Shown piece by piece: positions 3,921-27,475 of a DNA stretch of 64,000 bases. The DNA comes from an uncultured Clostridia bacterium. GTDB taxonomy: Bacteria; Bacillota; Clostridia; TANB77; CAG-508. The notes beneath the pieces were generated by a model. It made no database searches. It was not told the DNA's origin and saw nothing but the letters and a program-made list of their open reading frames with translations. Position 1 is the stretch's first letter, and every line of letters starts with the position of its first letter. The position numbers and the translations under genes are program-made. The DNA is taken from positions 128,058-192,057 of the forward strand of contig CAKPIA010000001.1 in assembly GCA_934162205.1 (NCBI GenBank), read 5' to 3'.

Positions 3921-4244
3921 TTAAGGTTTATATGTTATTTTTGCATTTATAACTCCGTTTATTCTACAATACTCTACTTCTAAGCCATTTTCCACCAAAA
4001 GTGGTATCATTTTTTCAAATGTTTCTATTCTATACTTTTCACTAAATGTTCTTGTAACATCTTTTTCCTTAATAGAACTTTTTTGATAAAATATATTTTT
4101 CGAAATATCAGAAAAAATTTTAATAGCCACTCCTTTAGCCAACTCTTCTGTATCAAATTCTAGAAAAATATCTTCTATTTCCTCATACATTTTTTCTATT
4201 TCTACTTTTTTTATTTTGTTGTCTAATTTTTCCCGTAAAGTCAT
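3921..4244 (-). CDS. Hypothetical protein of about 107 aa. The start is uncertain. The ORF-track N-terminal extension is probably not translated.
   Basis: The ORF lies between era and the DUF3048 gene. No recognisable motif. Internal M (MTLREK) is preceded by AAAGGA. Confidence 0.4.
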   Translation of the reverse strand: MTLREKLDNKIKKVEIEKMYEEIEDIFLEFDTEELAKGVAIKIFSDISKNIFYQKSSIKEKDVTRTFSEKYRIETFEKMIPLLVENGLEVEYCRINGVINAKITYKP

Positions 4245-4382
4245 AAACCCACATCCTTTCTTATAAGATATAAAAACCATTTTTACAACATTTTGCAATA
4301 GCTTTATTATTTCATATTTTAAACTATAAATCAATAAAAAAAGTAGAAGATAATTAAAAATCATCCTCTACTTTTCTACAAT

Positions 4383-5444
4383 TTATTCAAATGTTACATT
4401 TGCATCTTTTGGACATATATTTACCCAAGTATTTCCATCATTAACTTCAAGTTCTTTTCCATTTTCATCTTTATAAACTGTCTTTTTATTTCTATCTGAT
4501 TTTGTACATGTTATTTTTATTGCTTTTCCATTAGTTATATAATAGCCATTATATGTACCAATATTATTTAATCCTTGTCTTCCTTTTCCAGATCCATCAT
4601 TTAAATCATAATTTTCTATAAATTCAATTATTATATTTTTTGTTGTTACAGTCTCTCCTGTTTCCCAATCTGTTTGAACTCTATTTCTTGCATATCTTTT
4701 ATATCTTTGTGTTTGTTCATCATATTTATATTCTACAGTTTGTAAATTAGAATGTGGTATTGTAACAGATTTTGCACTTGTTCCATTTGTTAATTCTACT
4801 TCATTTGTTACATATTTTAATACACTTGCAGAATTTGATGTTGTTCTATATCCTTTATTTTCTGCAATTTTATAAATACTATTTATGTCTGTTGCTACAT
4901 TATGTGGTGCTTTTTTATCAGATACTCTCCTAAATGCACTAGCACTTTCTTGTATTCCATTTATATTATTAACACCTAATTTTGTAATATCTTTCTTTCC
5001 TTGTGGGCTCCATCCATAATGTGTATATATTGCATCATTTTCTAAAGCATAATCTAAGAAATAATGTCTACAACTTCTTACTGGACCTATTTTTTGTGCA
5101 TCTGCACCTTTAAATAGTGCCATTAATCTAGTTTCTCCACCTTCAACAATTATTTCGTATACCATATATGTTTTGTTAAGTCCACCTTGTGGCCATGCTC
5201 CACTATGGTTATCTATCATTACAGCAACTGGTCTTTCTGTTCCACTATATATTTTTATTCCTTCATTTCTTTCTTCTTTTTCTTCTTCTACAATTTGTGG
5301 TTCTGTGGTATTTTCTGGTTCTTGTCCATTCTTTTTATTGTTTGATATTTTTACTGCTAAAATAATTCCTGCTACCAAAATTATAATTGCTAAAACTGCT
5401 ATCAAAATTTTTGTTTTATTTTTTACAAAAAACTCCTTATTCAT
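4383..5444 (-). CDS. DUF3048 (YerB-like) membrane-anchored/lipoprotein.
   Basis: N-terminal TM helix, then MIDNHSGAWPQGGL...RLMALF...PVRSCRHYFLDYA, which is characteristic of the YerB/DUF3048 family. Confidence 0.7.
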   Translation of the reverse strand: MNKEFFVKNKTKILIAVLAIIILVAGIILAVKISNNKKNGQEPENTTEPQIVEEEKEERNEGIKIYSGTERPVAVMIDNHSGAWPQGGLNKTYMVYEIIVEGGETRLMALFKGADAQKIGPVRSCRHYFLDYALENDAIYTHYGWSPQGKKDITKLGVNNINGIQESASAFRRVSDKKAPHNVATDINSIYKIAENKGYRTTSNSASVLKYVTNEVELTNGTSAKSVTIPHSNLQTVEYKYDEQTQRYKRYARNRVQTDWETGETVTTKNIIIEFIENYDLNDGSGKGRQGLNNIGTYNGYYITNGKAIKITCTKSDRNKKTVYKDENGKELEVNDGNTWVNICPKDANVTFE

Positions 5445-10041: not shown

Positions 10042-11820
10042 TTATATTGCTCCATATTTTATTAATAATTTTTCTATTTCGGTACCTTTAATCTTTTTTA
10101 GTCCCTCTTTTAGTGCTAATTTTTGTGGCAATGATAAATCCATTTCTGTAATTTTTTTGCCGTCATTTAATTTTACTGTTGCACTTATTAAATCTCTTAT
10201 ATCATATACACTTCCCCATACTTCTGGAACTCCTCTATCTATATTGCATAATGTATATACTGCTTCCATTGCTGTTCTAATTGAATATTCTGTTGTAAAT
10301 ACTGTGTCTCTTGGTGTTTCTGCATATTGTCCTATAAATGCTAAATTTACAGATCCATTTGGTACAACTAATGGTCTATCTCCATATCTTCTTGGTTCAA
10401 AAAATGATGTTACATATGGCATCATGCATGGTGTTGTATTACATGCATTTTGTGCTAAATCCATAATTCTATCTTTTGGTATTCCTATATGATATAGCCA
10501 TTCAGCTGCAAGTTCAATACCAGTACATTGATACATAGGCTTATCTATAAAGTCTCCTTTATCCTCCCAACAATTTAATCCATAAACCCAAATTAAGCAA
10601 TCATCTTTTGCTTGTTCTCTAAATTGTCCTTGACGATTTATTGTCCAACTTATTAACCAAGATGAATCTTTACATGTTACAATTCCTCCTGTTACAACTT
10701 TACCAGAAAGTGGGTTACGATGACATATTTTTTCTATTGCATCTAGAATTTCTTTATTTGATGTTTCAACAGTCCAAGATTCCCAACTTGTTTCTCTTAT
10801 ATCTTTAAAAAACTTATCTGGATTTCCAAATGCTTTATCTTGTTTAGCCATATTTTTCCACAATTCTATTGATGGACCTTCTCCATTTTTTATTTTCAAC
10901 TCTGGAGCATGTGTTTGGTCTCCATATGCAGAATTATCTCCTTGGCATCCATTTGTTACAAAAACCAAATCATTTTCTGTTAATTCAATTTTTTTGTCTT
11001 CATTATTTTGAGTATAATAAATAACTTTAGCAAGTTTCATTTCTTCATTACAAGTACATTCAACATTTTTTACTGTTGTATCATATTCAAATTTTACTCC
11101 TCTGTCTTTTAAATATTTAACCATTGGTAAAATCATTGATTCATATTGATTGTATCTTGTAAATCTTAATGCACTTAAGTCTGGTAATCCATCTATATGA
11201 TGTATATATCTTTGTAAATATAATTTCATTTCCAATGCACTATGCCATTTTTCAAACGCAAACATTGTCTGCCAATAAATCCAGAAATTAGTTTTATAAA
11301 ACTCTTCATCAAATAAATCATCAATTGTCTTATCTGCTAATTCCTCATCTGTTGCCATAAATAATTTTAATAATTCTTCTGTTGCTTTAGGATTCATTCC
11401 ATATTTTTTATCTGTATGAGCATCTTGTCCTTGTTTTTCTGTTACACGACATAATGAATAATTTGGATCTTCTTTATTTACTTTGTAATATTCGGAAAAT
11501 ATAGTTTCTCCTGGATTGTCTATTGATGGTATTGAACGAAATAAATCCCACATACATTCAAAGTGATTATCCATTTCACGTCCACCACGCATAATATATC
11601 CTTTGTTTTTATCAAATATCCCATCACATGAGCCTCCTGGCAATGGTAAGTGCTCAAATAATGTTATATTTTCTCCTTTCATTTGAGCATCTCTTACTAA
11701 AAAACAAGCTACTGATAATCCTCCTAATCCTGTTCCTACTATATAAGCTTTTTTATTTTCTATCCCCTCTGGTTTTTCTGCTTTTGCAAAAGCTTCATAA
11801 TTTCCATTTGAATAATACAT
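10042..11820 (-). CDS. ohyA: Oleate hydratase (fatty-acid double-bond hydratase, MCRA family).
   Basis: MYYSNGNYEAFA N-terminus, FAD-binding GTGLGGLSVA, RGGREM motif. Length is 592 aa. Confidence 0.9.
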   Translation of the reverse strand: MYYSNGNYEAFAKAEKPEGIENKKAYIVGTGLGGLSVACFLVRDAQMKGENITLFEHLPLPGGSCDGIFDKNKGYIMRGGREMDNHFECMWDLFRSIPSIDNPGETIFSEYYKVNKEDPNYSLCRVTEKQGQDAHTDKKYGMNPKATEELLKLFMATDEELADKTIDDLFDEEFYKTNFWIYWQTMFAFEKWHSALEMKLYLQRYIHHIDGLPDLSALRFTRYNQYESMILPMVKYLKDRGVKFEYDTTVKNVECTCNEEMKLAKVIYYTQNNEDKKIELTENDLVFVTNGCQGDNSAYGDQTHAPELKIKNGEGPSIELWKNMAKQDKAFGNPDKFFKDIRETSWESWTVETSNKEILDAIEKICHRNPLSGKVVTGGIVTCKDSSWLISWTINRQGQFREQAKDDCLIWVYGLNCWEDKGDFIDKPMYQCTGIELAAEWLYHIGIPKDRIMDLAQNACNTTPCMMPYVTSFFEPRRYGDRPLVVPNGSVNLAFIGQYAETPRDTVFTTEYSIRTAMEAVYTLCNIDRGVPEVWGSVYDIRDLISATVKLNDGKKITEMDLSLPQKLALKEGLKKIKGTEIEKLLIKYGAI

Positions 11821-11938
11821 AATAATTACCTCCTATATTTTTTTTCAATATAGTAATAACATTTTGTATTTTTGATTTCAATAAACAAATTTTAATCAAT
11901 GATAAATTTTTTATCATATATTATAAATTGATGTAAAA

Positions 11939-12517
11939 TTAATTATTATCTTTGTTAAACTGTTCTAATGCTTCAATTATATTTCCATGAACTAATATAT
12001 TTAATTTATCTATAATTATTTTAGGATCTTCCTTCATATCTTCTTCTATCCAATCTAGCATTATCCCTACAAAAGCATTTTTATAAAAATTTGCAATAAA
12101 TTTTTTATCTTCTTCTTCTACTTTTATATTTTTAGATTTTTCGTTAATAACATCCATTATTAATTTATATGTTAATTCTTTTACAAATTTTTCTATATGT
12201 TCCCTACTAATATTTTTATACACATTCATTATAAATGGCTTATTTCCTAAAACTGCTTCAAATATTTGATAATAGCCTTCTTGCCAAGTGTCATATGTTT
12301 TTTTACCTTTTATTGCTTCTTTGGCATCTTCTAAACACACCCATTCTATTAATTCATATATATCGTGGAAGTGATAATAAAATGTCATTCTATTAATTCC
12401 ACAATCGTTTGTTAAATCTTCTACTGTTATTTTATTTACTTTTTTCTTTAATAGCATCTTTTTTAGAGAATTTTCTAATGCTTTTTTTGTTAAATTTGAC
12501 AATTCTATCATCTCCAA
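11939..12517 (-). CDS. TetR/AcrR family transcriptional regulator.
   Basis: N-terminal HTH (ITVEDLTNDCGINRMTFYYHFHDIYEL). Length is 192 aa. It is adjacent to ohyA, as in other Firmicutes. Confidence 0.85.
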   Translation of the reverse strand: MEMIELSNLTKKALENSLKKMLLKKKVNKITVEDLTNDCGINRMTFYYHFHDIYELIEWVCLEDAKEAIKGKKTYDTWQEGYYQIFEAVLGNKPFIMNVYKNISREHIEKFVKELTYKLIMDVINEKSKNIKVEEEDKKFIANFYKNAFVGIMLDWIEEDMKEDPKIIIDKLNILVHGNIIEALEQFNKDNN

Positions 12518-12701
12518 TTTTTATTTAGTATATATTATTTTTTAGTTTTTTTCTAGCCAAAATTTAAAAATTTTATATTGTTTAATTTTAAATTAGAACT
12601 ACTTTTTTTATCTTTTAATTTTTTTCATATCAATTATTCCTTTTTATAAAAATAATAGTAATTTAGGCATTATATTTTTGTAAAATTATTCCAATTTTCT
12701 A

Positions 12702-12730
12702 TTGACAAGTTTAAGATTTTGAATTATATT
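12702..12730 (+). promoter_or_regulatory. Sigma-A-type promoter upstream of the LytTR regulator operon.
   Basis: TTGACA, then a 17-nt spacer, then TATATT, about 95 nt upstream of the start codon. Confidence 0.5.
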
Positions 12731-12823
12731 GTTACTGCTATTGGAAAAATAAGGTAATTTTGGGTTATATGTCGAAAACTATCAATACTTTAAAAAAAGC
12801 CCACTACAAGGAGAGAATTTTTA

Positions 12824-13534
12824 ATGATAAATTTTATAATTTGTGATGATAATCAAATAATTCTAGATAAATTAGAAAAAATTTTAAATGATATATTTTC
12901 TAGAAATGGATTTGAAGCTCAAGTAGCATTAAAATCTACTAATGTTGACGAAGTTCTTGACTTCGTTACTTTTAACAAAGTGGATGTTTTAATTTTAGAT
13001 ATAAATTTAAAATCTAGACTTACAGGATTAGAACTTGCTCAAAAAGTAAGAGAATTTAATAAAGACTGCTATTTAATATTTACAACAGGTCATCTAGAAT
13101 ATGCAATGCTTGCTTATAAATTCAAAACTTTTGATTATTTAGCAAAACCTATCACATCTGAAAGATTAGAAGATACTATTATAAGATTGTTTGATGATAT
13201 GTTTGGACAACCTAAAAAATATATGAAAATAGATAATAAAAATACACTTATTAATGAAGCAGATATTCAATATATTAAAAGAGAAGGGATGAGGCTTGTT
13301 TACCACACCAGAGATATGGATTATTTTACTTATGGCTCTTTTAATAAAATTCAACCTTCGCTACCAGAAAATTTTATAAGATGTCACAAATCTTATATAG
13401 TAAATATAAATAATGTAAAAAATTATGATGCGACCACTAATACTATTAGTTTTGGTAATAGTGTTTCTTGTGCTGTTGGTCCTAAATATAAAAAGATAAT
13501 TATGGAGGTGTTAAACAATTATGGAAATAAATAA
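12824..13534 (+). CDS. agrA: LytTR-family response regulator (AgrA-like).
   Basis: Receiver domain (DVLILDINL) plus a C-terminal LytTR DNA-binding domain. Length is 236 aa. Confidence 0.85.
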   Translation: MINFIICDDNQIILDKLEKILNDIFSRNGFEAQVALKSTNVDEVLDFVTFNKVDVLILDINLKSRLTGLELAQKVREFNKDCYLIFTTGHLEYAMLAYKFKTFDYLAKPITSERLEDTIIRLFDDMFGQPKKYMKIDNKNTLINEADIQYIKREGMRLVYHTRDMDYFTYGSFNKIQPSLPENFIRCHKSYIVNINNVKNYDATTNTISFGNSVSCAVGPKYKKIIMEVLNNYGNK

Positions 13535-14864
13535 TATTTGGAGTGCTCTATCAAGTGAGAATATTGCAATTATAAATCTTATGAAATACATTGGAATGTT
13601 TATAGAAAGTTATCTTCTTCTTAAACTTTCTTTATCAGCCTTAAACGTAAATTCTTCTAAGAAACAACGAATATTATATGTTTTACTTTTAGGACTAGAA
13701 GGAATTATAAGTTCTTATATAATACCATCACCCTTAAATTTAATTACAAATTATTTTATTAATTTCTTATTAGTTTTATTCATTTTTAAAATAAAACCTT
13801 TAAAAGTAATTTTATTTATAATATTACCAATTTGTATTTTTGCTTTGTTGGGAACACTAATAATAAATCCTTATTTAACATTATTAGATATTACATACGA
13901 ACAAACCGAATCTATTCCAATTTACAGATTAGGTTATTTAGCAATAATGTATACTATTGTTGGTTTAATAATTTGTATCATCAAATGTAAAAATTTTAAA
14001 ATCGCAGTATTAGAAGAACTTGATAAAAAAACAAAATTAATTATAATAAGTAATTTTATTTTAGGATTAATTGTTTTATGTATTCAATTATTTATTAATT
14101 TTTATTATATTAATGAATTTCCTTTAATAATAACTTTTTTAAATTTTATATCTTTATTAGCTTATTTCTTTATAAGTATATATAGTTTAACTAGAGTAAC
14201 AAAATTATATAAAACTCAAAAACAATTAGAAAATTCAGAAGCTTATAATAAATCTTTATCAATATTACATGATAATATTAGATGTTTTAAACATGATTTT
14301 GATAACATTGTTGCAACAATCGGTGGATATGTAAAAACAGATGATATGGAAGGTCTTAAAAAATATTATTATCAATTAGAAGATGATTGTCAAAGAGTTA
14401 ACAATATTGCAACACTAAGTCCAGAAATAATAAATAATCCAGGTGTATATGCAATACTTAGTTCTAAATATCATAAAGCTGATGAAAAAAATATTAAAAT
14501 TAATTTAGAATTTTTCTTAGATTTAAACACACTTAATATGAAAATTTATGAATTTACTAGAATCTTTGGTATACTTTTAGATAATGCAATAGAAGCAAGT
14601 TCAGAATGTGAAGAAAAACTTATAAATATAAAATTTAGAAATGAAGAAAGCAAACATAGGCAAATTGTTGTTATTGAAAATACATTTAAAGATTCAAAAT
14701 TAAATATTGATGATATTTTTCAAAAAGGTGTATCTGGAAAAGAAAATCATACTGGACTTGGATTATGGGAAGTAAGACAAATTTTAAAGAAAAATAATAA
14801 CTTAAATTTACATACACAAAAATCTGAAAATATGTTTATTCAGCAACTTGAAATTTATTATTAA
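13521..14864 (+). CDS. agrC: AgrC-like (HPK10) sensor histidine kinase.
   Basis: Six to seven N-terminal TM helices, H-box FKHDFDN, N-box LLDNAIEAS, G-box GLGLWEV. It overlaps the regulator gene by 14 nt, suggesting translational coupling. Confidence 0.85.
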   Translation: MEINNIWSALSSENIAIINLMKYIGMFIESYLLLKLSLSALNVNSSKKQRILYVLLLGLEGIISSYIIPSPLNLITNYFINFLLVLFIFKIKPLKVILFIILPICIFALLGTLIINPYLTLLDITYEQTESIPIYRLGYLAIMYTIVGLIICIIKCKNFKIAVLEELDKKTKLIIISNFILGLIVLCIQLFINFYYINEFPLIITFLNFISLLAYFFISIYSLTRVTKLYKTQKQLENSEAYNKSLSILHDNIRCFKHDFDNIVATIGGYVKTDDMEGLKKYYYQLEDDCQRVNNIATLSPEIINNPGVYAILSSKYHKADEKNIKINLEFFLDLNTLNMKIYEFTRIFGILLDNAIEASSECEEKLINIKFRNEESKHRQIVVIENTFKDSKLNIDDIFQKGVSGKENHTGLGLWEVRQILKKNNNLNLHTQKSENMFIQQLEIYY

Positions 14865-14877
14865 TAAATACATAAAA

Positions 14878-14910
14878 AAATAACAGCCTTTATTGGCTGT
14901 TATTTTTTTG
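14878..14910. terminator. Bidirectional terminator between the convergent agrC and agrD.
   Basis: AATAACAGCC..GGCTGTTATT stem plus a T7 tract. Confidence 0.6.
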
Positions 14911-14961
14911 TAAAATGGTTTATTTTATAATATTTGCTAAGTTAGCATTATAAAATACTTA

Positions 14962-15081
14962 TTAGTCTTTTTTTATCATAGAAACTGGCATTTTAGGTTG
15001 ATGTAACAACCAAACTAAGAAACATGCTGTATTTGTTGTCTTTGCATACTTTTCTGCAATTTTTGCTAAAATTTTTAACAT
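14962..15081 (-). CDS. agrD: AgrD-like autoinducing peptide precursor of 39 aa. Not in the ORF track.
   Basis: Minus-strand ORF MLKILAKIAEKYAKTTNTACFLVWLLHQPKMPVSMIKKD with RBS AAGGGGGAA 6 nt upstream. It has an amphipathic leader, a single Cys followed by hydrophobics, then a charged HQP...P tail, as in the C. perfringens AgrD sequence recalled from memory (..SACLWFTHQPEEPK..). It lies 57 nt downstream of agrB. Confidence 0.75.
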   Translation of the reverse strand: MLKILAKIAEKYAKTTNTACFLVWLLHQPKMPVSMIKKD

Positions 15082-15138
15082 AAAAATTCCCCCTTTATTT
15101 TTAATTTTTATATAAGAAAAAATTTGTAATGTTTAATC

Positions 15139-15741
15139 TTAGTATACTTCATAACCATATTTATTATTAGTTAGTCTGTACATTACTTTAGTTATTGATA
15201 AGGTCTGAAGTAATGTTCCTATAATTAATATGTTAGATATTACATTATCTCTTATGAAAATTGCAGCTATCAAAGAAATTGTAGCTATAATATAAGAAGC
15301 TAATTGTTTCTTTCGTCTTACTTTAGTTTCTAAGATAGGTACTTCTTCTGTGTCAGCCGGTGCATAAAGTTTTATCATTGCCATCGAAAATATCCATATT
15401 AATGATATAAGAATATATTTAACAATATCATTTAAAACTATATATTGACTTACAAATGCAGTACCACAATATGTTAATGTTGTTGCTATTATGCAACCAA
15501 TATGTGTATGTAGGTGAAATCCTCCCGAAACTGATCTGTATGGCATTATTAATATAAAAGTTATTAGTGTTAATTTAAATATACCTAATATCCATGATAT
15601 TAATAATATTATAAAAATTTTTGGTATCTCACCTATTAAAATTTGTAGGCCATAATTGATGACTTGCGTTCTCTCATCATCAATTTCTGGCATTTTCTTT
15701 CGTATTTTGTTGGTTAAAAATAAGCAGATTTTGTCTATCAT
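15139..15741 (-). CDS. agrB: AgrB-family AgrD-processing membrane endopeptidase.
   Basis: 200-aa polytopic membrane protein with the conserved RSVSGGFHLHTHIGCIIATTL block (catalytic His/Cys). RBS is GAGGTGAGGTG. Confidence 0.85.
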   Translation of the reverse strand: MIDKICLFLTNKIRKKMPEIDDERTQVINYGLQILIGEIPKIFIILLISWILGIFKLTLITFILIMPYRSVSGGFHLHTHIGCIIATTLTYCGTAFVSQYIVLNDIVKYILISLIWIFSMAMIKLYAPADTEEVPILETKVRRKKQLASYIIATISLIAAIFIRDNVISNILIIGTLLQTLSITKVMYRLTNNKYGYEVY

Positions 15742-15929
15742 ATTTTTTCACCTCACCTCTATTTGAGTTCAATTAGAGTTTATCATTAATATTCATTTTT
15801 GATTTTTTTCTTTTATAAAATGTATAAAATAATTCATAAAACTTTTTTCCATGTATTTTTTGTAAAAAAATCATTTTATAAAAAAAGAGGCTAGAAATTT
15901 TTTCTAGTCTCTTAAGAAAATTATTACTT

Positions 15930-17009
15930 TTATAAAGTTTCTTTATACATATTTGCATACATTTCCAATGCATCATCAAAAGAATCTGCAAGAATAATCT
16001 CACCATGTAATTTCATAATACCTTTCTGATATTTATCCATTACAGGTTTAATTTTATAGAGTTCTCCCCATTCTCCATACCGAAGATATTCACTACTATT
16101 GTACTTTAAAGTCTTATTACTATAAGTAATATCTTTACAATGACCATGTACAATAATACTCTTCTTTGGAAAAGTTTCAAATAATTCAAGTACCAAAGGT
16201 GTCTCAGAAGATGGATTAATTTTTCCAGCCCAAGAAACAATATGATCTTTACTGTCAAGAATAAGTGTAAGATTTTCTCGTTTCAATGCTCCTACAGAGG
16301 CTCCAGTAGACGTTATTAAAACTCCCTCTGGTATCTTTCTTGCAATAAAACCAGCCACACCATTAGTATATTGATTCTCTTGCAAAAATTTTCCTACTGT
16401 AAAAAATTCTGGAAAATATTTAGTAATAATATCTGTCATGTCATAATCAATCTTCTTGTGTGAATATCTTATCTTTGTATATCTGTGGCATATATTATCT
16501 AAAATCTTTTCCCATGGAGCCATTGTAATTCTATCCAAAGTTCCATCTTCATTATAAATGTACTCTGGATATACAATAGAAACATTACCAAAAGCATTAA
16601 TCTTAGCAAAGTTTTCCTTAGTTATAGGATGATTGAAATATCCCTGGTTCATAGATGGTGCAATTACAATGTACTTACCATATCCAATTGCTGAATGAAT
16701 AATCGATAATGGATAATTATCAGCAATTCCATTAGCAATTTTTGAAAATGTATTAAAAGTACATGGTGCTACAACAATTAAATCTTCTTCAGGAATTCTT
16801 TCATTGATAGAATTTGCTCTATTAAATGTATAGTCTCTCTTAATTTTATACCCTTCAACTGTTCTTAAGTCCATTATTGAACAACTAGCCGCAGTAGGCA
16901 TTAGGATACATGTTGCTCCTTCTGCTTTAAGGTAATCTAAGAGAATCTTTACATCTTTACTCTTGTTAGCTCCTGTTGTTACAACATAAACCACTTTACC
17001 TTTAAGCAT
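15930..17009 (-). CDS. Fusion protein with an N-terminal HFCD/CoaC-like flavoprotein domain and a C-terminal class II aldolase/adducin domain.
   Basis: N-terminal VVYVVTTGANKS...LIVVAPCTFNTFSKIANGIADN...YIVIAPSMN matches the flavoprotein (PF02441-like) signature. C-terminal NGVAGFIARK..VLITSTGASVGALKRENL...SSETPLVLELF...IIVHGHC matches the class II aldolase signature (GGN(I/V)S, ITPSG, HTHS-like). Confidence 0.6.
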   Translation of the reverse strand: MLKGKVVYVVTTGANKSKDVKILLDYLKAEGATCILMPTAASCSIMDLRTVEGYKIKRDYTFNRANSINERIPEEDLIVVAPCTFNTFSKIANGIADNYPLSIIHSAIGYGKYIVIAPSMNQGYFNHPITKENFAKINAFGNVSIVYPEYIYNEDGTLDRITMAPWEKILDNICHRYTKIRYSHKKIDYDMTDIITKYFPEFFTVGKFLQENQYTNGVAGFIARKIPEGVLITSTGASVGALKRENLTLILDSKDHIVSWAGKINPSSETPLVLELFETFPKKSIIVHGHCKDITYSNKTLKYNSSEYLRYGEWGELYKIKPVMDKYQKGIMKLHGEIILADSFDDALEMYANMYKETL

Positions 17010-17020
17010 ATTATTTCCTC

Positions 17021-17530
17021 CTATTCAAAATTATATTTTCGATATAGTTCATATGCAATCGCCGAAACAGCAACTGGTAATGTAAGAAAATCAACTTTTG
17101 ATTTATCCATTGGTAGCTTAATTATTTCATCTAACATTTTCTGTTTAGCAATAGTTAAGCCAGATGTTTCTGTTCCAAAAACTACAACAACATCTTTATC
17201 TTCAGGTAAATCTAAATCATAAAAAATTTTGTTGGTGTTTCCAGATGTACCAATAAGATATTTTCCCTTTGCTCTTAAGTCCGTAATAGCTTCTTCAAAG
17301 GTATTGTAATGAATCTCCTTTACCTCACCTGTAATATTCCATGATTTAACTTTACTTGTAATTTTTGGAATATCAAATGGTATTGAATTTTTTCCAGCCG
17401 TATAGATAACGCAATCAATTGCATTTGCAATCTGGATAACATGTGCAATATCATACGGTGACCGAATTGTGTCAAATAACAGTTCTACTTTTTTCATAAT
17501 GTTTACCTCACCTTTCACTTTTTTTTGCAA
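17021..17530 (-). CDS. SPOUT (SpoU/TrmH-family, TrmL-like) RNA 2'-O-methyltransferase.
   Basis: VVVFGTETSGL and IKLPM...TLPVAVSAIAYELYR motifs. Length is 169 aa, comparable to TrmL. Confidence 0.65.
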   Translation of the reverse strand: MQKKVKGEVNIMKKVELLFDTIRSPYDIAHVIQIANAIDCVIYTAGKNSIPFDIPKITSKVKSWNITGEVKEIHYNTFEEAITDLRAKGKYLIGTSGNTNKIFYDLDLPEDKDVVVVFGTETSGLTIAKQKMLDEIIKLPMDKSKVDFLTLPVAVSAIAYELYRKYNFE

Positions 17531-18218
17531 CCAAAATAAATGGATCTGATGTTATGTTACAATTACCATTTAAGTTTTCTATTATTTTTTCTTCATCTTT
17601 TTCAGAATAATTCTCAATAAAAGGAAAACTTTTAGTAATGTTAATAATTTCTTGAACACTTTGATACTTTCTTTGTATCTCATATTGTTCAACACTAATA
17701 ATATCAAACCCAGATTTCTCAAGTTTAGTAGAATAATATTCAATCTTTCTGCTTCTAATCAGTCTATTTCTAAACAGACTAGCTATTTCTACTAATCCCT
17801 TACTTGGTCCATATTCTCTAAAAACAAAATATCCCCCATTTTTAAGTACTCTGTATAATTCATCAGAATCATATATAGTTACATTTTTTGCAGTAATAAT
17901 ATCAAAAGAATTATTTGCAAAAGGAAGATTATTATTGTCTGCTTCAAGAATATTTGCACTTTCTCCCAAATTTTTTCTGGCTACTTTTACCATTTCACTT
18001 GAATTATCAACTCCTGTCAATGTGCTTTTGATACTTGAACATTCTTTAATTTGTTTTAATACAAATCCATTTCCTGTTCCAATATCAAGGATTTTAGATC
18101 CCTCTTCCATAAAAGAAATAATTTTCCGAACAAACAAACTATTAATATCCTGAGTTTGTTTGACGGGTGCTGCAATACTAGTGCTACGAATATTCACAAC
18201 TTTTTCATCGTAAAACAT
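17508..18218 (-). CDS. Class I SAM-dependent methyltransferase.
   Basis: ILDIGTGNGFV motif I, Methyltransf_11-like. Overlaps the downstream SPOUT gene by 23 nt. Confidence 0.75.
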   Translation of the reverse strand: MFYDEKVVNIRSTSIAAPVKQTQDINSLFVRKIISFMEEGSKILDIGTGNGFVLKQIKECSSIKSTLTGVDNSSEMVKVARKNLGESANILEADNNNLPFANNSFDIITAKNVTIYDSDELYRVLKNGGYFVFREYGPSKGLVEIASLFRNRLIRSRKIEYYSTKLEKSGFDIISVEQYEIQRKYQSVQEIINITKSFPFIENYSEKDEEKIIENLNGNCNITSDPFILVAKKSER

Positions 18219-18327
18219 CTTTTCACCCTTTCATAAATTATTTTTACTGGATCATTTTATCATTTTATGTATACTTTGTCAATAATTAAGCTTTTAAAAT
18301 ACAAAAAGTACAGCATTAACTGTACTC

Positions 18328-18771
18328 TTAAAATTTATCTATCTTTTCTTCTTTAAAAAATTTTTCCTTTTTAATTCCTAATTTTAAAACATCTTCTAGT
18401 ATTTTCTTATCTCCAAACCAATTTATTTGTTCTATAAATTCATCAAACTTGCACCATTTATAATCTATACTTTCTTCATTCAATACGATATTGGTTTTAT
18501 TTACAAAACTTATATACACATATTCTTTACAATGTACTTTTAATGATTCATATTCTAAAATCCAATTTAAATAAATATTATTATTAGTCAATAGTCCTGT
18601 TTCTTCTTTTACTTCTCTTTTAACAGTTTCTTCTCTATCTAAATCCTCTTCTTCACATCCTCCTGTTACTACATACCAAAATGATTTTTTAAATTGTGGA
18701 TCATCATCACTACCTTTTAATAATAATATTTCGTTATATTCATTTACAATAAATGTTAAAATTTTATTCAC
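18328..18771 (-). CDS. NUDIX hydrolase.
   Basis: Nudix box GGCEEEDLDREETVKREVKEETGL. Confidence 0.8.
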   Translation of the reverse strand: MNKILTFIVNEYNEILLLKGSDDDPQFKKSFWYVVTGGCEEEDLDREETVKREVKEETGLLTNNNIYLNWILEYESLKVHCKEYVYISFVNKTNIVLNEESIDYKWCKFDEFIEQINWFGDKKILEDVLKLGIKKEKFFKEEKIDKF

Positions 18772-18930
18772 TTATATCACCATATATAAGTATATCACTT
18801 AACCATATATTTAGCAATAAATTATCAAGTCATTTACTTTTATGTAAATTCATGCTATAATATTGACGTTCTCAATTATATTTAAACACAAACTATGTTT
18901 TAGTTTGTAAATCTACAAGGAGGTATTGAC

Positions 18931-19734
18931 ATGAGTAATTGGTACGAATCTAGCATCAAGTCATTGGTTGAAGAGTATTTTAAAGAACATGGTTTTCCCG
19001 TTGTCTTTGACTCTTCAGAGTTCTGGAATGTGTTTATTGAAAAATATCATAAACAACTTCCCAGCTCTCAAATAGCACATTTTGATAAAATTGCTACAGA
19101 AGCACGGTCATATGCATTTAATAAAAAATATGGTACCTATTCATATTTAACAGATTATCGTTCTGTATGTGAAAATTGGAATCATATTATCTTAAATGAA
19201 ATCCAAAAAATTCTTGGAAAAAATTTGGATTCAAAAAAAGTTCTTGCTTTAGGAGCTAATAACGGCTCTGAACTTGCTATCATCTTTGAGAATTTTTTTA
19301 ATACAATTGATTTTAATGTTGTAGAAATCTCAGAAACAGCTTGTTCTTCTGGCAAGACACTTTATCCAAATATTAATTTCATATGTGCGTCAATGGATGA
19401 AGTACCTCTTTCTGAAAATGAATTTGATATTTTCATCAGTTTACGTGCTGCATACTGTGCGGGTAATAACCTCGACTTTATAGTTAACAAGGCTATCCAT
19501 TCTGTTAAACCTGGCGGAGTTATCATCTTTTCCATATCAAATGGATACATTGATGTATCTGATGGTAAATATACACCTATTAAAGGAGTATATAACCCGG
19601 AAAATAAACATTGTGATGAAACAGAAACTGAAAGAAACATCAATTGGATGAAAAATGCTATGTTGACAAATGGTTGCTCAAAGGTTGATTTAGTTGATGC
19701 AGAAAGTGAGATTCTACTTATTTCTAAGCGTTAA
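18931..19734 (+). CDS. Putative SAM-dependent methyltransferase-like protein.
   Basis: KVLALGANNGSEL (motif I-like), FDIFISLRAAY, VKPGGVIIFSI. The assignment is tentative. Confidence 0.45.
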   Translation: MSNWYESSIKSLVEEYFKEHGFPVVFDSSEFWNVFIEKYHKQLPSSQIAHFDKIATEARSYAFNKKYGTYSYLTDYRSVCENWNHIILNEIQKILGKNLDSKKVLALGANNGSELAIIFENFFNTIDFNVVEISETACSSGKTLYPNINFICASMDEVPLSENEFDIFISLRAAYCAGNNLDFIVNKAIHSVKPGGVIIFSISNGYIDVSDGKYTPIKGVYNPENKHCDETETERNINWMKNAMLTNGCSKVDLVDAESEILLISKR

Positions 19735-19744
19735 CTCCAAAAAA

Positions 19745-19787
19745 CATACTAATAGAGTCCTTATGTATAAGGACTCTATTAGTATAT
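19745..19787. terminator. Strong bidirectional hairpin terminator.
   Basis: ATACTAATAGAGTCCTTA-TGTA-TAAGGACTCTATTAGTAT, an 18-bp perfect stem. Confidence 0.7.
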
Positions 19788-20475
19788 CTCAATTTTTACA
19801 TCTTTTAAAATACACCATGTTCCATTGCTTTCTGGAAAATCTTTAAATACCATTTCTTCTTTTGTTGTAGGATGACTAATTTTTAACTTATATGCCCATA
19901 ATGCTATTTGTTTTCCTTTACCTCTTGTTCCATATTTTTGATCACCAAATATACTATGTCCAAAATTAGATAATTGAACTCTTATTTGATGGTGTCTTCC
20001 TGTATGAAGATTTATTTTTAATAAAGATAAATTTTTTACTTCATTATATGCAAGAACTTCATAATCTAATTTAGCAAATTTACTATTTTTCTTATCTTTA
20101 TTTACAACTTTGCTTATATTATTTCTTTCATCTTTATATAAATAATCTTCTAATGTTCCGCTTCTTATTTTCTATTTTTCCATCAACAACAGCAAGATAC
20201 ATTTTGCTAAACTCTTTATTTCTTATTTGTTCACTAAGTCTTGATGCAGCTTTAGATGTTTTGGCAAATACCATAACTCCTCCAACTGGTCTATCTAATC
20301 TATGAACAAGTCCTAAATAAACATTTCCTGGTTTATTATATTTTTCTTTTATGTATTCTTTTATAATTGTAAGCATATCTATATCTTCTGTTTTATCTGA
20401 TTGTGATGGTATGTTAGGCTTTTTTTCTACAACTATTATGTGATTATCCTCATAAATAATTTTTAAATCTTGCAT
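19778..20475 (-). pseudogene. RluA-family pseudouridine synthase interrupted by a +1 frameshift. The extra base lies near plus-strand 20160.
   Basis: The N-terminal frame contains HRLDRPVGGVMVFAKT (catalytic Asp motif) and ends KIENKKRNIRRLFI*. The downstream frame continues GTLEDYLYKDERNNISK...HTGRHHQIRVQL..., the conserved RluA C-terminal core. Removing the C in AAGAAGCGGAACA restores KIENKKGTLEDY. Confidence 0.75.
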
Positions 20476-25263: not shown

Positions 25264-25461
25264 TTTTCCTCCATAACTTATAGTAATTATGTATTTCTCT
25301 ATAATTAATATATAATATTATTTAATAAAAGACAATATTATACTAACACTATTATTAGAAATTTTTAAAAAAACTTGCAACTTTTTTGGTATTATTGTAA
25401 TATAATAAAGTAAAATTGAAAGGCAAATAATAAAATTTAAAAGAAAGGAGTTTATTTATTA

Positions 25462-25640
25462 CATAGCGCCTGGACAGTTTATACTGTTGACGAGGACTAA
25501 AGTTATCGAAAAATTCGGCGGATGCTTTAGTGGCATAGCTACTGTCATAGATATTAATAAAAAACAATAGTGATATTGTAACAGAGTTAATATTAGTAGC
25601 TATTATTTGTATGCTTTCAATTCCAATAATATTTTTTAAG
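25462..25640 (+). ncRNA. glmS_ribozyme: glmS ribozyme (GlcN6P-responsive self-cleaving riboswitch).
   Basis: AGCGCCUGGACAGUU...GACGAGGA...GUUAUCGAAAAAUUCGGCGGAUGC core blocks immediately upstream of glmS. Confidence 0.8.
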
Positions 25641-25651
25641 GAGGATTCACT

Positions 25652-27475
25652 ATGTGTGGAATTGTAGGTTATATAGGAACAAAAAAAGCCAGTCCTATAC
25701 TTATTAATGGGCTTTTAAAATTAGAATATAGAGGTTATGATTCAGCAGGAATTTCAACAATTGAAAATGGCTCTATATCAGTTATGAAAGATAAAGGAAG
25801 AGTAAAAAATTTATACGATTTAGACGGAATTAATGATTTAGTTGGAACTGTTGGTATTGCTCATACAAGATGGGCAACTCATGGAAAACCATCTAAAGAA
25901 AACTCTCATCCTCATTTAGATAATACAAATACTTTTTGTGTTGTACATAATGGAATAATTGAGAATTATAATGAATTGCGTGAATTTTTAAAAGATAATG
26001 GATATACTTTCTATTCTGAAACAGATACAGAAGTTATTCCAAATTTAATATCTTATTATTATAAAAAAGGAAATGATTTCTTAAAATCTGTAAATCTTAC
26101 TTGTAATGATTTAAAAGGAAGTTATGCAATTGAAGTTATTTGTAAAGATTTTCCAGACAATATGATTGTTGCAAGAAAAGATAGTCCTTTAGTAATTGGA
26201 AAAGCAGAAAATGAAACATTCATTTCTTCCGATATTCCAGCACTAATATCATTTACAAACACATTCTACTTTTTAAACGATAATGAGATGGCATATATAT
26301 CTAAAGATGATATTAAATTTTATGATAATACCCTAAACGAATTATCTAAAGAATTAACAACTGTAGAATTATCTGCTGATAGTGCTGATAAAGATGGATT
26401 TGAAGATTATATGTTAAAAGAAATTTTTGAACAACCAAAAGCAATAAGAGAAACTATTGGAACATCACTTAATGGTTCAAAAATTCATTTTGAAGGATTA
26501 AATTTAGCAAAAGAATATTTATCTACAATAAATAAAATTTATATGATAGCATGTGGTACTGCAATGCATGCAGGACTTGGTGTAAAATCTAATTTTGAAA
26601 CATTATGCAACATCCCAGTTACAGTTGAAGTTGCTTCAGAATTTAGATATAGAAATCCATTAATTGATGACAAAACTTTATGTATTTATATAAGTCAATC
26701 TGGTGAAACAGCAGATACAATTGCAGCTCTTAAACTTGCAAAATCAAAAGGTGCAAAAACAATTGCAGTTACAAATGTTATAGAAAGTTCTATAACTAGA
26801 GAAGCAGATTATTTTGTATATACTCATGCTGGTCCAGAAATAGCTGTTGCATCAACAAAAGCTTATACATCACAATTAGTTTTACTTAATATTATGGCTC
26901 TTTATTTTGCAGAAACATTAGAAAGTTGTTCTCAAAATAGAATTGATAATATTAAAAAAGAAATTTTAAAACTTTCTGAAAAAGCAGAAGAAATTCTAGA
27001 AAATACAGAAAAAATAAAAGAAATTGCTAAAAAGATTTCTTCACAAAAATATATGTTCTATTTAGGTAGAGGTATTGATTATCCAGTAGCCATGGAAGGT
27101 GCTTTAAAATTAAAAGAAATTTCTTATATTTTCGCAGAAGCTTATCCTTCTGGAGAATTAAAACATGGACCTATTGCTTTAATAGAAAATGGAGTTTCAG
27201 TTATAAATATATTAACAAATTCTACTTTAGTTGAAAAATCTTTAAGTAATGTTCAAGAAGTTGTAACTCGTGGTGCAAATTGTATTATAATTACAAATCA
27301 AGACTTTGATACATCTAGTTTTGAAAATGTAATAAAAATACCAGAAATTTCTGCACTTGTATCACCTATTTTATCTGTTATTCCTCTTCAATTACTTGCT
27401 TACTATATAACTAAAGAAAAAGGATTAGATGTTGATAAACCTAGAAATTTAGCAAAATCTGTAACTGTTGAATAA
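25652..27475 (+). CDS. glmS: Glutamine--fructose-6-phosphate aminotransferase.
   Basis: N-terminal MCGIVGYIG (Cys2 nucleophile), two SIS domains. Length is 607 aa. Confidence 0.95.
   Translation: MCGIVGYIGTKKASPILINGLLKLEYRGYDSAGISTIENGSISVMKDKGRVKNLYDLDGINDLVGTVGIAHTRWATHGKPSKENSHPHLDNTNTFCVVHNGIIENYNELREFLKDNGYTFYSETDTEVIPNLISYYYKKGNDFLKSVNLTCNDLKGSYAIEVICKDFPDNMIVARKDSPLVIGKAENETFISSDIPALISFTNTFYFLNDNEMAYISKDDIKFYDNTLNELSKELTTVELSADSADKDGFEDYMLKEIFEQPKAIRETIGTSLNGSKIHFEGLNLAKEYLSTINKIYMIACGTAMHAGLGVKSNFETLCNIPVTVEVASEFRYRNPLIDDKTLCIYISQSGETADTIAALKLAKSKGAKTIAVTNVIESSITREADYFVYTHAGPEIAVASTKAYTSQLVLLNIMALYFAETLESCSQNRIDNIKKEILKLSEKAEEILENTEKIKEIAKKISSQKYMFYLGRGIDYPVAMEGALKLKEISYIFAEAYPSGELKHGPIALIENGVSVINILTNSTLVEKSLSNVQEVVTRGANCIIITNQDFDTSSFENVIKIPEISALVSPILSVIPLQLLAYYITKEKGLDVDKPRNLAKSVTVE

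Follow-up and report, generated by a model that had tools for sequence, protein, structure and literature searches.

A predicted agr-type quorum-sensing cassette of convergent layout with a hypervariable signal core in uncultured gut Clostridia

A four-gene cluster at positions 12824–15741 of a 64-kb stretch of DNA from an uncultured gut Clostridia species (hereafter the window; very AT-rich, with a G+C content of 25.4%) raises the question of whether it forms a complete quorum-sensing system of the agr type and, if so, which peptide would serve as its signal. An earlier note on this DNA had proposed that a LytTR-type response regulator and an AgrC-like kinase of the HPK10 type, encoded on the plus strand, converge on an AgrB processing enzyme and a small open reading frame (ORF) on the minus strand. 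All four ORFs were located, in the ORF list and in the sequence, exactly where that note had put them, and Pfam or NCBIfam models match all four genes (Table 1). The locus is very likely a genuine and complete agr-type peptide quorum-sensing cassette that is predicted to work. Three lines of evidence bear out its description as a self-contained pair of signal and receptor: the family models, conservation across 80 related genomes, and an AgrD core that varies together with the AgrC sensor domain within the species. Four-gene cassettes of this kind are well known, and every defining agr feature that can be tested in sequence is present here except a match to the Pfam AgrD model.

Table 1. Features of the agr cassette and their positions in the window
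Feature	Positions	Strand	Basis
Predicted agrAC sigma-A promoter, TTGACA-17 nt-TATATT, 11/12 to consensus	12702..12730	+	Promoter scan
agrA: response regulator with REC and LytTR domains, 236 amino acids	12824..13534	+	Pfam Response_reg 2.6e-16, LytTR 1.6e-19
agrC: HPK10-type kinase, 447 amino acids	13521..14864	+	Pfam HATPase_c_5 3.5e-16
agrC sensor half, residues 1-225: polytopic membrane domain, hypervariable receptor part	13521..14195	+	Hydrophobic segments, identity profiles
agrC kinase half: H-box FKHDFDN (H258) and GHKL ATPase	14196..14864	+	HATPase_c_5 3.5e-16, invariant residues
Hairpin between the convergent stop codons, predicted intrinsic terminator on both strands	14874..14909	.	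Terminator scan: 15-bp stem, 6-nt loop
agrD: autoinducing-peptide precursor, 39 amino acids, MLKILAKIAEKYAKTTNTACFLVWLLHQPKMPVSMIKKD	14962..15081	-	TIGR04223, 26.7 bits
Predicted mature signal core, codons Cys20-Leu26 (CFLVWLL)	15004..15024	-	Column entropy, core alleles
agrD ribosome-binding site AGGGGGAA	15088..15095	-	Read from sequence
agrB: membrane peptidase, predicted to process and cyclise AgrD, 200 amino acids	15139..15741	-	Pfam AgrB 1.5e-38
Predicted extended -10 of the agrBD promoter, TGATAAACT	15777..15785	-	Read from sequence
Proximal 9-bp box pair TTTTATGAA-N12-TTTTATAAA, 21 bp start to start, predicted AgrA site	15812..15841	-	Exact match search
Distal boxes TTTTATAAA (15875-15883) and TTTTACAAA (15859-15867), 16 bp apart	15859..15883	-	Position weight matrix scan

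The identification of the minus-strand membrane protein as AgrB is secure in Pfam PF04647 (132 bits against a cutoff of 23), with positions 4–185 of the 185-position model covered. It carries an H-x6-C pair, GGFH76-x6-C83, which we take by its motif to be the counterpart of the catalytic pair H77/C84 of Staphylococcus aureus AgrB. A search against PDB sequences returned no match at E ≤ 1, so the catalytic residues were placed by motif and invariance: G73, G74, H76, C83 and the YAPADT motif (126–131) are invariant among 81 aligned AgrB sequences. AgrC aligns end to end with the NCBIfam AgrC model (residues 53–442, 3.7e-35); it has six to seven hydrophobic segments within residues 1–220 and an N-box (LLDNAIEA) in addition to the H-box, and H258, D259, N262, N355, G412 and G414 are invariant in 56 sequences. 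In AgrA, whose reading frame overlaps that of agrC by 14 nt, the receiver residues D9, D59, T88 and K108 and several LytTR residues are invariant in 75 sequences. Nothing suggests decay of the catalytic or signalling residues of the cassette. Against the assignment stands the poor fit to the staphylococcal equivalog models, where AgrC, AgrA and AgrB all fall well short of the cutoffs (93 against 282 for AgrB), as is expected of distant orthologues. A linear pheromone system of the ComCDE/BlpRH/Pln type (ComC/Blp) was ruled out, there being an adjacent AgrB, no GG leader and no ABC exporter among the neighbours.

The small ORF passes the NCBIfam AgrD family TIGR04223 (4.5e-06, cutoff 19 bits). 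It has no match to Pfam at E ≤ 1, so that of the two AgrD models suggested as a check TIGR04223 recognised it and PF05931 did not; the latter result speaks only to the distance from the AgrD sequences behind that model, TIGR04223 being the broader of the two. The features that had been read from the sequence were all found: a strong ribosome-binding site (GGGGGA) 7–8 nt 5' of the ATG, one Cys only, at position 20, and six residues between this Cys and the HQP of the tail HQPKMP..KKD. The proposed amphipathic N-terminal helix is likewise supported, as the helical hydrophobic moment of residues 1–16 is 0.55, while shuffled sequences give 0.24 and only 0.7% of them reach the observed value.

Conservation was assessed in relatives obtained by an AgrB scan of one genome per GTDB species, which gave 187 of them, the best 80 loci being fetched. 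All of these best 80 come from genomes that are metagenome-assembled or unnamed ("Clostridia / Clostridium sp."), among them Clostridium sp. CAG:440 and CAG:343, with gut sources that comprise human (Hadza included), rabbit, mouse, sheep and goat. An agrD homologue (62–87% identity; one copy is cut by a contig end) lies 3' of agrB on the same strand in 80/80 species-level genomes, each with an ATG and a ribosome-binding site of the GGAGG type (GGAGG or GGGGG at the equivalent position). Because a homologue follows agrB in every one of the 80 loci, the small ORF is a real conserved gene; a chance ORF was rejected on this conservation and on the TIGR04223 match. Column entropies calculated for the window and 79 species-level relatives show residues 1–20 (consensus MLKFLAKVAEKYAKSTNTAC) to be invariant or nearly so, with the exception of positions 4, 8 and 15 (1.2–2.0 bits), and residues 27–39 (HQPKMPASLIKKD) to vary by 1.0 bit at most. 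Exactly six positions, residues 21–26, are hypervariable, at 2.2–3.2 bits where most other columns stay below 1 bit, and the 80 genomes contain 80 distinct cores of the nucleophile and these six residues. The nucleophile at position 20 is Cys in 77/80 and Ser in 3/80.

The same design extends through the databases. A profile of 16 sequences headed by a 44-residue relative, searched against 5.8 billion proteins, matched 3385 database clusters; among the best 120 relatives, which include 112 distinct cores, a simple pattern match found the spacing C/S-x6-HQP in 115, and the other five, by inspection, apparently have the same spacing, matched from a Ser preceding the Cys (TNTSC or NSAC). Gene calls for the exact 39-residue sequence already exist on 29 public contigs (NCBI, ENA and Logan), all gut metagenome assemblies, it passes the NCBIfam model used by PGAP, and several family members bear the NCBI or JGI label "cyclic lactone autoinducer peptide". 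The label "unannotated" that the earlier note gave to this AgrD, which a raw window offers no means of judging, therefore does not hold, and, since automatic pipelines already recognise the family, no novelty attaches to that point. One family member, P0047 (MLKFLAKVAEKYAKATNTACFVFWVYHQPKMPASMIKKD), carries the NCBI label of the cultured species Thomasclavelia cocleata and lies on contigs no longer than 4.6 kb; unless it is contamination, it may point to a cultivable carrier of this agr type.

Signal and receptor alleles within one species

Variants of AgrB that are 94–100% identical to that of the window are numerous in databases, and the loci of four such variants, together with loci from the contigs and the genome scan described above, were used to compare strains within the species. 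At least six AgrD cores are present: CFLVWLL (the window), CALLWVL, CAIMWVL, CAVWWFM, CVAIWLL and CAVWWAL. In pairs of loci that share a core (n = 47) the AgrC sensor halves (residues 1–225) are 97–100% identical, whereas in pairs with different cores (n = 124) they are 60–88% identical, so that the two distributions do not overlap; the corresponding ranges for the kinase half are 91–100% and 90–100%. The two most alike cores, CALLWVL and CAIMWVL, which differ at two of the six positions, also have the most alike sensors (87%). Such a pattern is the hallmark of agr specificity groups, or pherotypes, as known from S. aureus (PMC12312760). Across species, identity to the window AgrC per bin is 37–47% in the sensor half and 55–77% in the kinase half. 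At the nucleotide level, a sliding-window comparison with the species representative L009 gave 60–83% identity for the agrC sensor, 84% for agrD, 93–98% for the agrC kinase core (14190–14640) and 97–100% for agrB.

AgrB does not co-vary with the core. Identical AgrB proteins were found with differing cores in three cases: P0198 with CAIMWVL and CAVWWFM, P0173 with CFLVWLL and CAVWWFM, and P0155 with CVAIWLL and CAVWWAL. This fits the invariance of the AgrD leader and tail that AgrB must recognise. Alleles of the kinase half do not follow those of core and sensor: both kinase types are found with CFLVWLL, and the type of the window recurs with CAIMWVL. Recombination therefore takes place between the agrD-core and agrC-sensor islands. 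We read the pairing of core and sensor, intact despite this recombination in a sample of modest size, as selection on the pair.

The co-variation is the strongest evidence for AgrC as the receptor cognate to the AgrD peptide, and for the six residues after Cys20 as the carriers of signal specificity. AgrB and AgrD might conceivably be a stand-alone producer with the two-component system a mere neighbour, given that agrBD-only loci with a receptor elsewhere are known in clostridia, for example C. difficile agr1 and C. perfringens (PMC8534292; PMC12312760), and that agrBD and agrAC are here separate transcription units on opposite strands. We consider this very improbable, as the four genes stay together in each of the 76 loci (of 80) whose length allows them to be seen, and as a sensor half that partitions perfectly by AgrD core, next to a kinase half that does not, would be difficult to account for if the sensor did not read the peptide.

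Other parts of the cassette also differ among strains. AgrC is 450–452 residues long instead of 447 in some pherotypes (L093, L094 and L099), and in L091 the agrC call (3977–5233) is of 418 residues; the sensor halves of different pherotypes therefore differ by small indels or in where they start. The agrA gene of the window (nucleotides 12824–13400) is 80–91% identical to that of L001, L002 and L009 and identical to that of L007 and L008, and its product is 89–93% identical to that of most strains and 100% identical to that of L007 and L008. The agrB gene and the agrC kinase half have 93–100% nucleotide identity to one or more of L001, L002 and L009. The cassette is thus a mosaic, its agrA allele diverging from most strains yet matching L007 and L008, which indicates recombination breakpoints inside the cassette near 13400–13500 and 14600.

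The predicted macrocycle and known agr systems

Most autoinducing peptides (AIPs) have rings of five residues; six are found in Clostridium acetobutylicum and its relatives, and nine in GBAP of E. faecalis (PMC4916163; PMC10301443; PMC12312760). The HQP motif that the earlier note had ascribed to C. perfringens AgrD is indeed there: C. difficile AgrD1 reads ...STCPWIIHQPK (PMC8534292) and C. perfringens AgrD reads CLWFTH... (PMC7300355), with four residues between Cys and His where the window has six. The rings listed for these two species are CPWII and CLWFT (PMC12312760). In both, then, the conserved motif directly follows a five-residue ring, and the same ruler applied here gives the seven-residue CFLVWLL.

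By this analogy a seven-residue ring is the product towards which we lean, with modest confidence, and the variability pattern is consistent with it. The fifth and sixth residues after Cys (+5 and +6) are always hydrophobic in the 80 loci, as are the C-terminal ring residues of the AIPs in PMC12312760. Their entropies, 2.5 bits at +5 and 2.17 bits at +6, exceed by far those of the flanking positions 16–20 and 27–32 (at most 0.3 bits; no flank column exceeds 2.0), which would be unexpected if the two residues served AgrB recognition alone. Within the species, +5 is L, V, F or A and changes between pherotypes along with the sensor, and +6 is L or M only. The prediction is weakened by its reliance on analogy and on this variability pattern, since a smaller ring could leave +5 and +6 outside it. 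The same cassette would then make a conventional ring, CFLVW or CFLVWL, AgrB cutting one or two residues short of HQP, so that the surplus hydrophobic residues departed with the tail. Such a product is possible but, in our estimate, doubtful. It would agree with the five-residue ring being by far the commonest and the six-residue ring the only other clostridial size known (PMC4916163; PMC10301443; PMC12312760), with the prevalence of Trp at +4 (40/80), which could be a preferred ring-closing residue, and with the low variability of +6, the least variable of the six positions. It is at odds with the ring ending immediately before His in both HQP-bearing systems with listed products, and with the behaviour of +5. 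Taken singly, a six-residue ring seems unlikely and a five-residue ring slightly more so. Of the two candidate signals proposed earlier, CFLVWLL is hence favoured, and CFLVW is not equally likely, all six positions after Cys being hypervariable and HQP invariant.

The N-terminal end of the product is less constrained by the sequence: the TNTA that precedes the Cys is invariant and fits a tail-less product or a constant tail alike, a point that weakens any choice between the two. The C. difficile AIP is listed with the tail ANST (PMC12312760), and the clostridial AIPs detected so far have no N-terminal tail and rearrange to lactams (PMC8251862). The calculated [M+H]+ values of the cyclic peptides are 875.4848 for CFLVWLL, 762.4007 for CFLVWL and 649.3167 for CFLVW, and those of forms with a tail are 946.5219, 1047.5696, 1161.6125 and 1262.6602.

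The cassette shares its four protein families and its logic with the agrBDCA locus of S. aureus: the kinase is polytopic and of the HPK10 type, the regulator is of the LytTR type, and AgrD has its Cys in the centre, between an amphipathic leader and a charged tail. Both also have allelic specificity groups in which the AgrD core and the AgrC sensor are hypervariable (PMC12312760). In S. aureus, however, the genes form one operon with a divergent RNAIII, whereas here there are two convergent operons; an Rfam scan of the whole window at gathering thresholds found no RNAIII, its only match being a glmS ribozyme, and an RNAIII equivalent is reported to be absent from clostridial systems (PMC12312760). 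The variable region of S. aureus is contiguous and takes in part of agrB, while here AgrB does not co-vary and, as the operons converge, the conserved kinase half and the terminator come between the two variable islands. In contrast to S. aureus, moreover, the leader residues before the Cys are invariant, and six residues rather than four separate the Cys from the conserved tail.

In C. acetobutylicum all four agr genes are co-directional, and its AgrD reportedly reads CVLVTL-YEPKMP (C-x5, so that the core of the window would be one residue longer), which we have not used as evidence. The two systems resemble each other in their separate agrBD and agrCA operons and in a ring larger than five, of six residues in C. 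acetobutylicum (PMC10301443), where the product was detected without an N-terminal tail (PMC8251862). They differ in that a LanM-like effector gene of the CA_C0082 type follows agrCA in C. acetobutylicum (PMC10301443), whereas here the operons converge and there is no adjacent LanM-like gene. In C. difficile AgrD1 and C. perfringens AgrD, as in the window, HQP(K) directly adjoins the variable core and the Cys is preceded by a stretch rich in S and T, C. difficile reading ...ANSTCPWIIHQPK (PMC8534292), C. perfringens CLWFTH... (PMC7300355) and the window ...TNTACFLVWLLHQPK; their loci, by contrast, comprise agrBD only, with the receptor elsewhere. The agr2 locus of C. difficile, agrACDB, runs in a single direction (PMC3754575).

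The closest chemical precedent is Rc-AIP1 of R. cellulolyticum, cyclo-CWFWSY, a six-residue tail-less macrocycle with an aromatic hydrophobic core in which the thiolactone is converted to a homodetic cyclic peptide (PMC8251862). This chemistry would apply here if the leader were cut at Cys20, although the Rc-AIP1 product was determined experimentally and its core is one residue shorter than the one predicted here. The E. faecalis fsr system also belongs to the agr family and makes a ring of more than five residues closed by a Ser lactone (PMC12312760), Ser being found at the nucleophile position in the three relatives mentioned above. It differs in the nine-residue lactone ring and two-residue tail of GBAP and in the unidirectional fsrBDCA order (PMC12312760), and the GBAP precursor has no obvious resemblance to the AgrD described here. 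AIP precursors have already been mined from human-microbiome genomes in large surveys (PMC11953309), and a literature search for AgrD sequence motifs gave no relevant paper. The cassette differs from the described systems in its convergent two-operon layout, its six-residue variable core, its leader that is invariant up to the Cys, and its non-co-varying AgrB.

Promoters, convergent layout and surroundings

The predicted agrAC promoter is conserved in the alignment of related loci, the words TATTGACA and ATTATATT occurring in 60 and 59 of 74. A self-repeat test found no 21-bp-spaced box repeats in this region. Conserved non-coding blocks adjoin it in the same 74 loci, one (TTGGAAAAT.AAGGTAATTTT) at 12731–12823, just 3' of the -10, and another (TTTGGATAATTTTGTAAATTTT) at 12670–12701, just 5' of the -35; these blocks might be an operator or a leader element.

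The agrBD promoter has a different structure. The word ATGATAAA is among the conserved columns upstream of agrB, and no -35 is recognisable between the extended -10 and the proximal box pair, which lies about 26 nt upstream of it. In S. aureus, AgrA binds 9-bp direct repeats that are 12 bp apart (21-bp spacing), and a 21-bp spacing is usual for LytTR sites. The proximal pair is the only exact match to TTTYATRAA-N12-TTTYATRAA in the 64 kb, with 0.00 expected from shuffles. Upstream of agrB, self-repeats of 9/10 identity are spaced by 21 bp in 32/80 loci, as opposed to 2–11 loci at any other spacing between 10 and 40, and a weight matrix built from the repeated word TTTYATRAA finds 63 adjacent box pairs at exactly 21 bp and at most 5 at 20 or 22 bp. 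In the family the boxes cluster at four places, roughly -143, -122, -97 and -76 relative to the agrB ATG.

From this geometry we infer that phosphorylated AgrA would activate agrBD through the 21-bp-spaced boxes. Feedback would then act on signal production only, the receptor operon agrAC being expressed independently. Several observations weigh against AgrA as the protein that binds. The box, TTTYATRAA(A), is nearly palindromic and bears no likeness to the staphylococcal AgrA consensus; words of this kind are common in DNA of 25% G+C, and another regulator could bind them; and the counts come from 80 homologous loci, which are not independent events. Box pairs with up to two mismatches, moreover, are not above chance in the window (3 found, 3.9 expected), so no member of a regulon can be named. 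The repeats could accordingly belong to another regulator or to an AT-rich architecture resembling an UP element, with agrBD not autoinduced. We regard this as fairly unlikely, since the exact pair is unique in the window where none is expected, its spacing is that of the S. aureus AgrA sites, and the boxes stand just upstream of a promoter that has no -35 while being absent from the agrAC promoter, which has a consensus one.

The B-D> <C-A layout is found in all 76 of the 80 related loci that are long enough to show it and is therefore the ancestral state of this lineage, not a local accident. Separate agrBD and agrCA operons have previously been described in Clostridium (PMC12312760, PMC10301443), and a literature search found no description of the convergent form. 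The noncanonical arrangement that the earlier note had emphasised was thus confirmed as regards convergence, but it is a variation and not a new design. The hairpin between the convergent stop codons is flanked by an A-run and a T-run, so that Ts follow the stem on both the minus and the plus strand, and the 97-nt spacer folds at -29.5 (plus) and -27.5 (minus) kcal/mol. A comparable A/T-flanked hairpin was seen in only 12/57 related loci by a crude fold-based test, and we do not claim conservation for it.

The surroundings of the cassette vary among strains on both sides. Relative to the 99%-identical strain L007, the window contains a 3.9-kb insertion (15887–19791) directly upstream of the agrBD promoter, its edge (15886/15887) lying just beyond the distal promoter box. 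It encodes a fusion of a flavoprotein and a class II aldolase (359 residues), a SpoU methylase, two methyltransferases and a NUDIX hydrolase. The segment is also present in L001, L004, L005 and L089 and absent from L007, L002, L009 and L094; in loci that lack it, a pseudouridine synthase gene abuts the agrBD promoter. On the other side, about 1.6 kb between agrA and the TetR gene of L001 and L002 is missing from the window (junction 12585/12586). In most strains this interval, divergent from agrA, holds an Amidoligase_2 gene (369 residues) and an ORF of 147 residues (L001, 7574–9116), which the window and L007 lack. An MCRA-family protein (592 residues, Pfam MCRA 1.2e-213) and, just upstream on the same strand, a TetR-family regulator (TetR_C_8; DhaS-like) are encoded on the minus strand at 10042–12517, and this pair adjoins the agr cassette in other strains as well. 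Farther away, the glmS ribozyme/riboswitch, the sole Rfam match in the window (25454–25604, plus strand; RF00234, 94 bits, full length), is directly upstream of an ORF of 607 residues (25652–27475); the GATase and SIS domains of its counterpart in L002 indicate that this ORF is glmS. No tRNA genes were found in the window.

The proposed circuit and its significance

In the circuit that we propose, AgrB, a membrane peptidase of the cysteine type (H76/C83), would bind the amphipathic leader of AgrD and its HQPKMP...KKD tail, remove the tail and close a thioester ring between Cys20 and the new C-terminus. Specificity would reside in the six residues that follow Cys20, the likeliest product being the macrocycle CFLVWLL, and a cut of the leader right at the Cys, as in other clostridia, would allow rearrangement to an all-amide cyclic peptide. 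AgrC would sense the peptide through its polytopic N-terminal half and phosphorylate AgrA at D59. Phosphorylated AgrA may then bind the TTTYATRAA repeats upstream of agrBD and raise the output of signal. The agrAC operon would run from its own consensus sigma-A promoter, and both operons would end at the one hairpin terminator on which they converge.

Tentatively, and with a little less than even confidence, we propose that this C/S-x6-HQPKMP family makes a seven-residue macrocycle throughout the lineage, that each species has a private signal, and that at least six pherotypes coexist in one gut species with one AgrB serving them all, the linkage of core and sensor being kept despite recombination of the kinase segment. 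If so, there would be selection on the pairing of signal and receptor within human gut populations, and a ring of seven residues, an undescribed size between the five or six of most AIPs and the nine of GBAP, would extend the known chemistry of AgrB. If the ring is not of seven residues, the locus would be just another agr system of the ordinary sort. The features that merit experiments are the predicted ring of seven residues and the pherotype structure.

Work on agr signalling has dealt nearly exclusively with pathogens and a small number of industrial clostridia. In the loci described here, a single conserved agr design is shared by a very large group of uncultured Clostridia from the guts of humans, rabbits, mice and ruminants. 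The family is a source of many predicted and easily synthesised cyclic peptides with which communication or interference among gut commensals may be probed. As only six residues of the peptide and the membrane domain of its receptor change, both between species and between strains, these bacteria would offer a natural experiment on the evolution of specificity.

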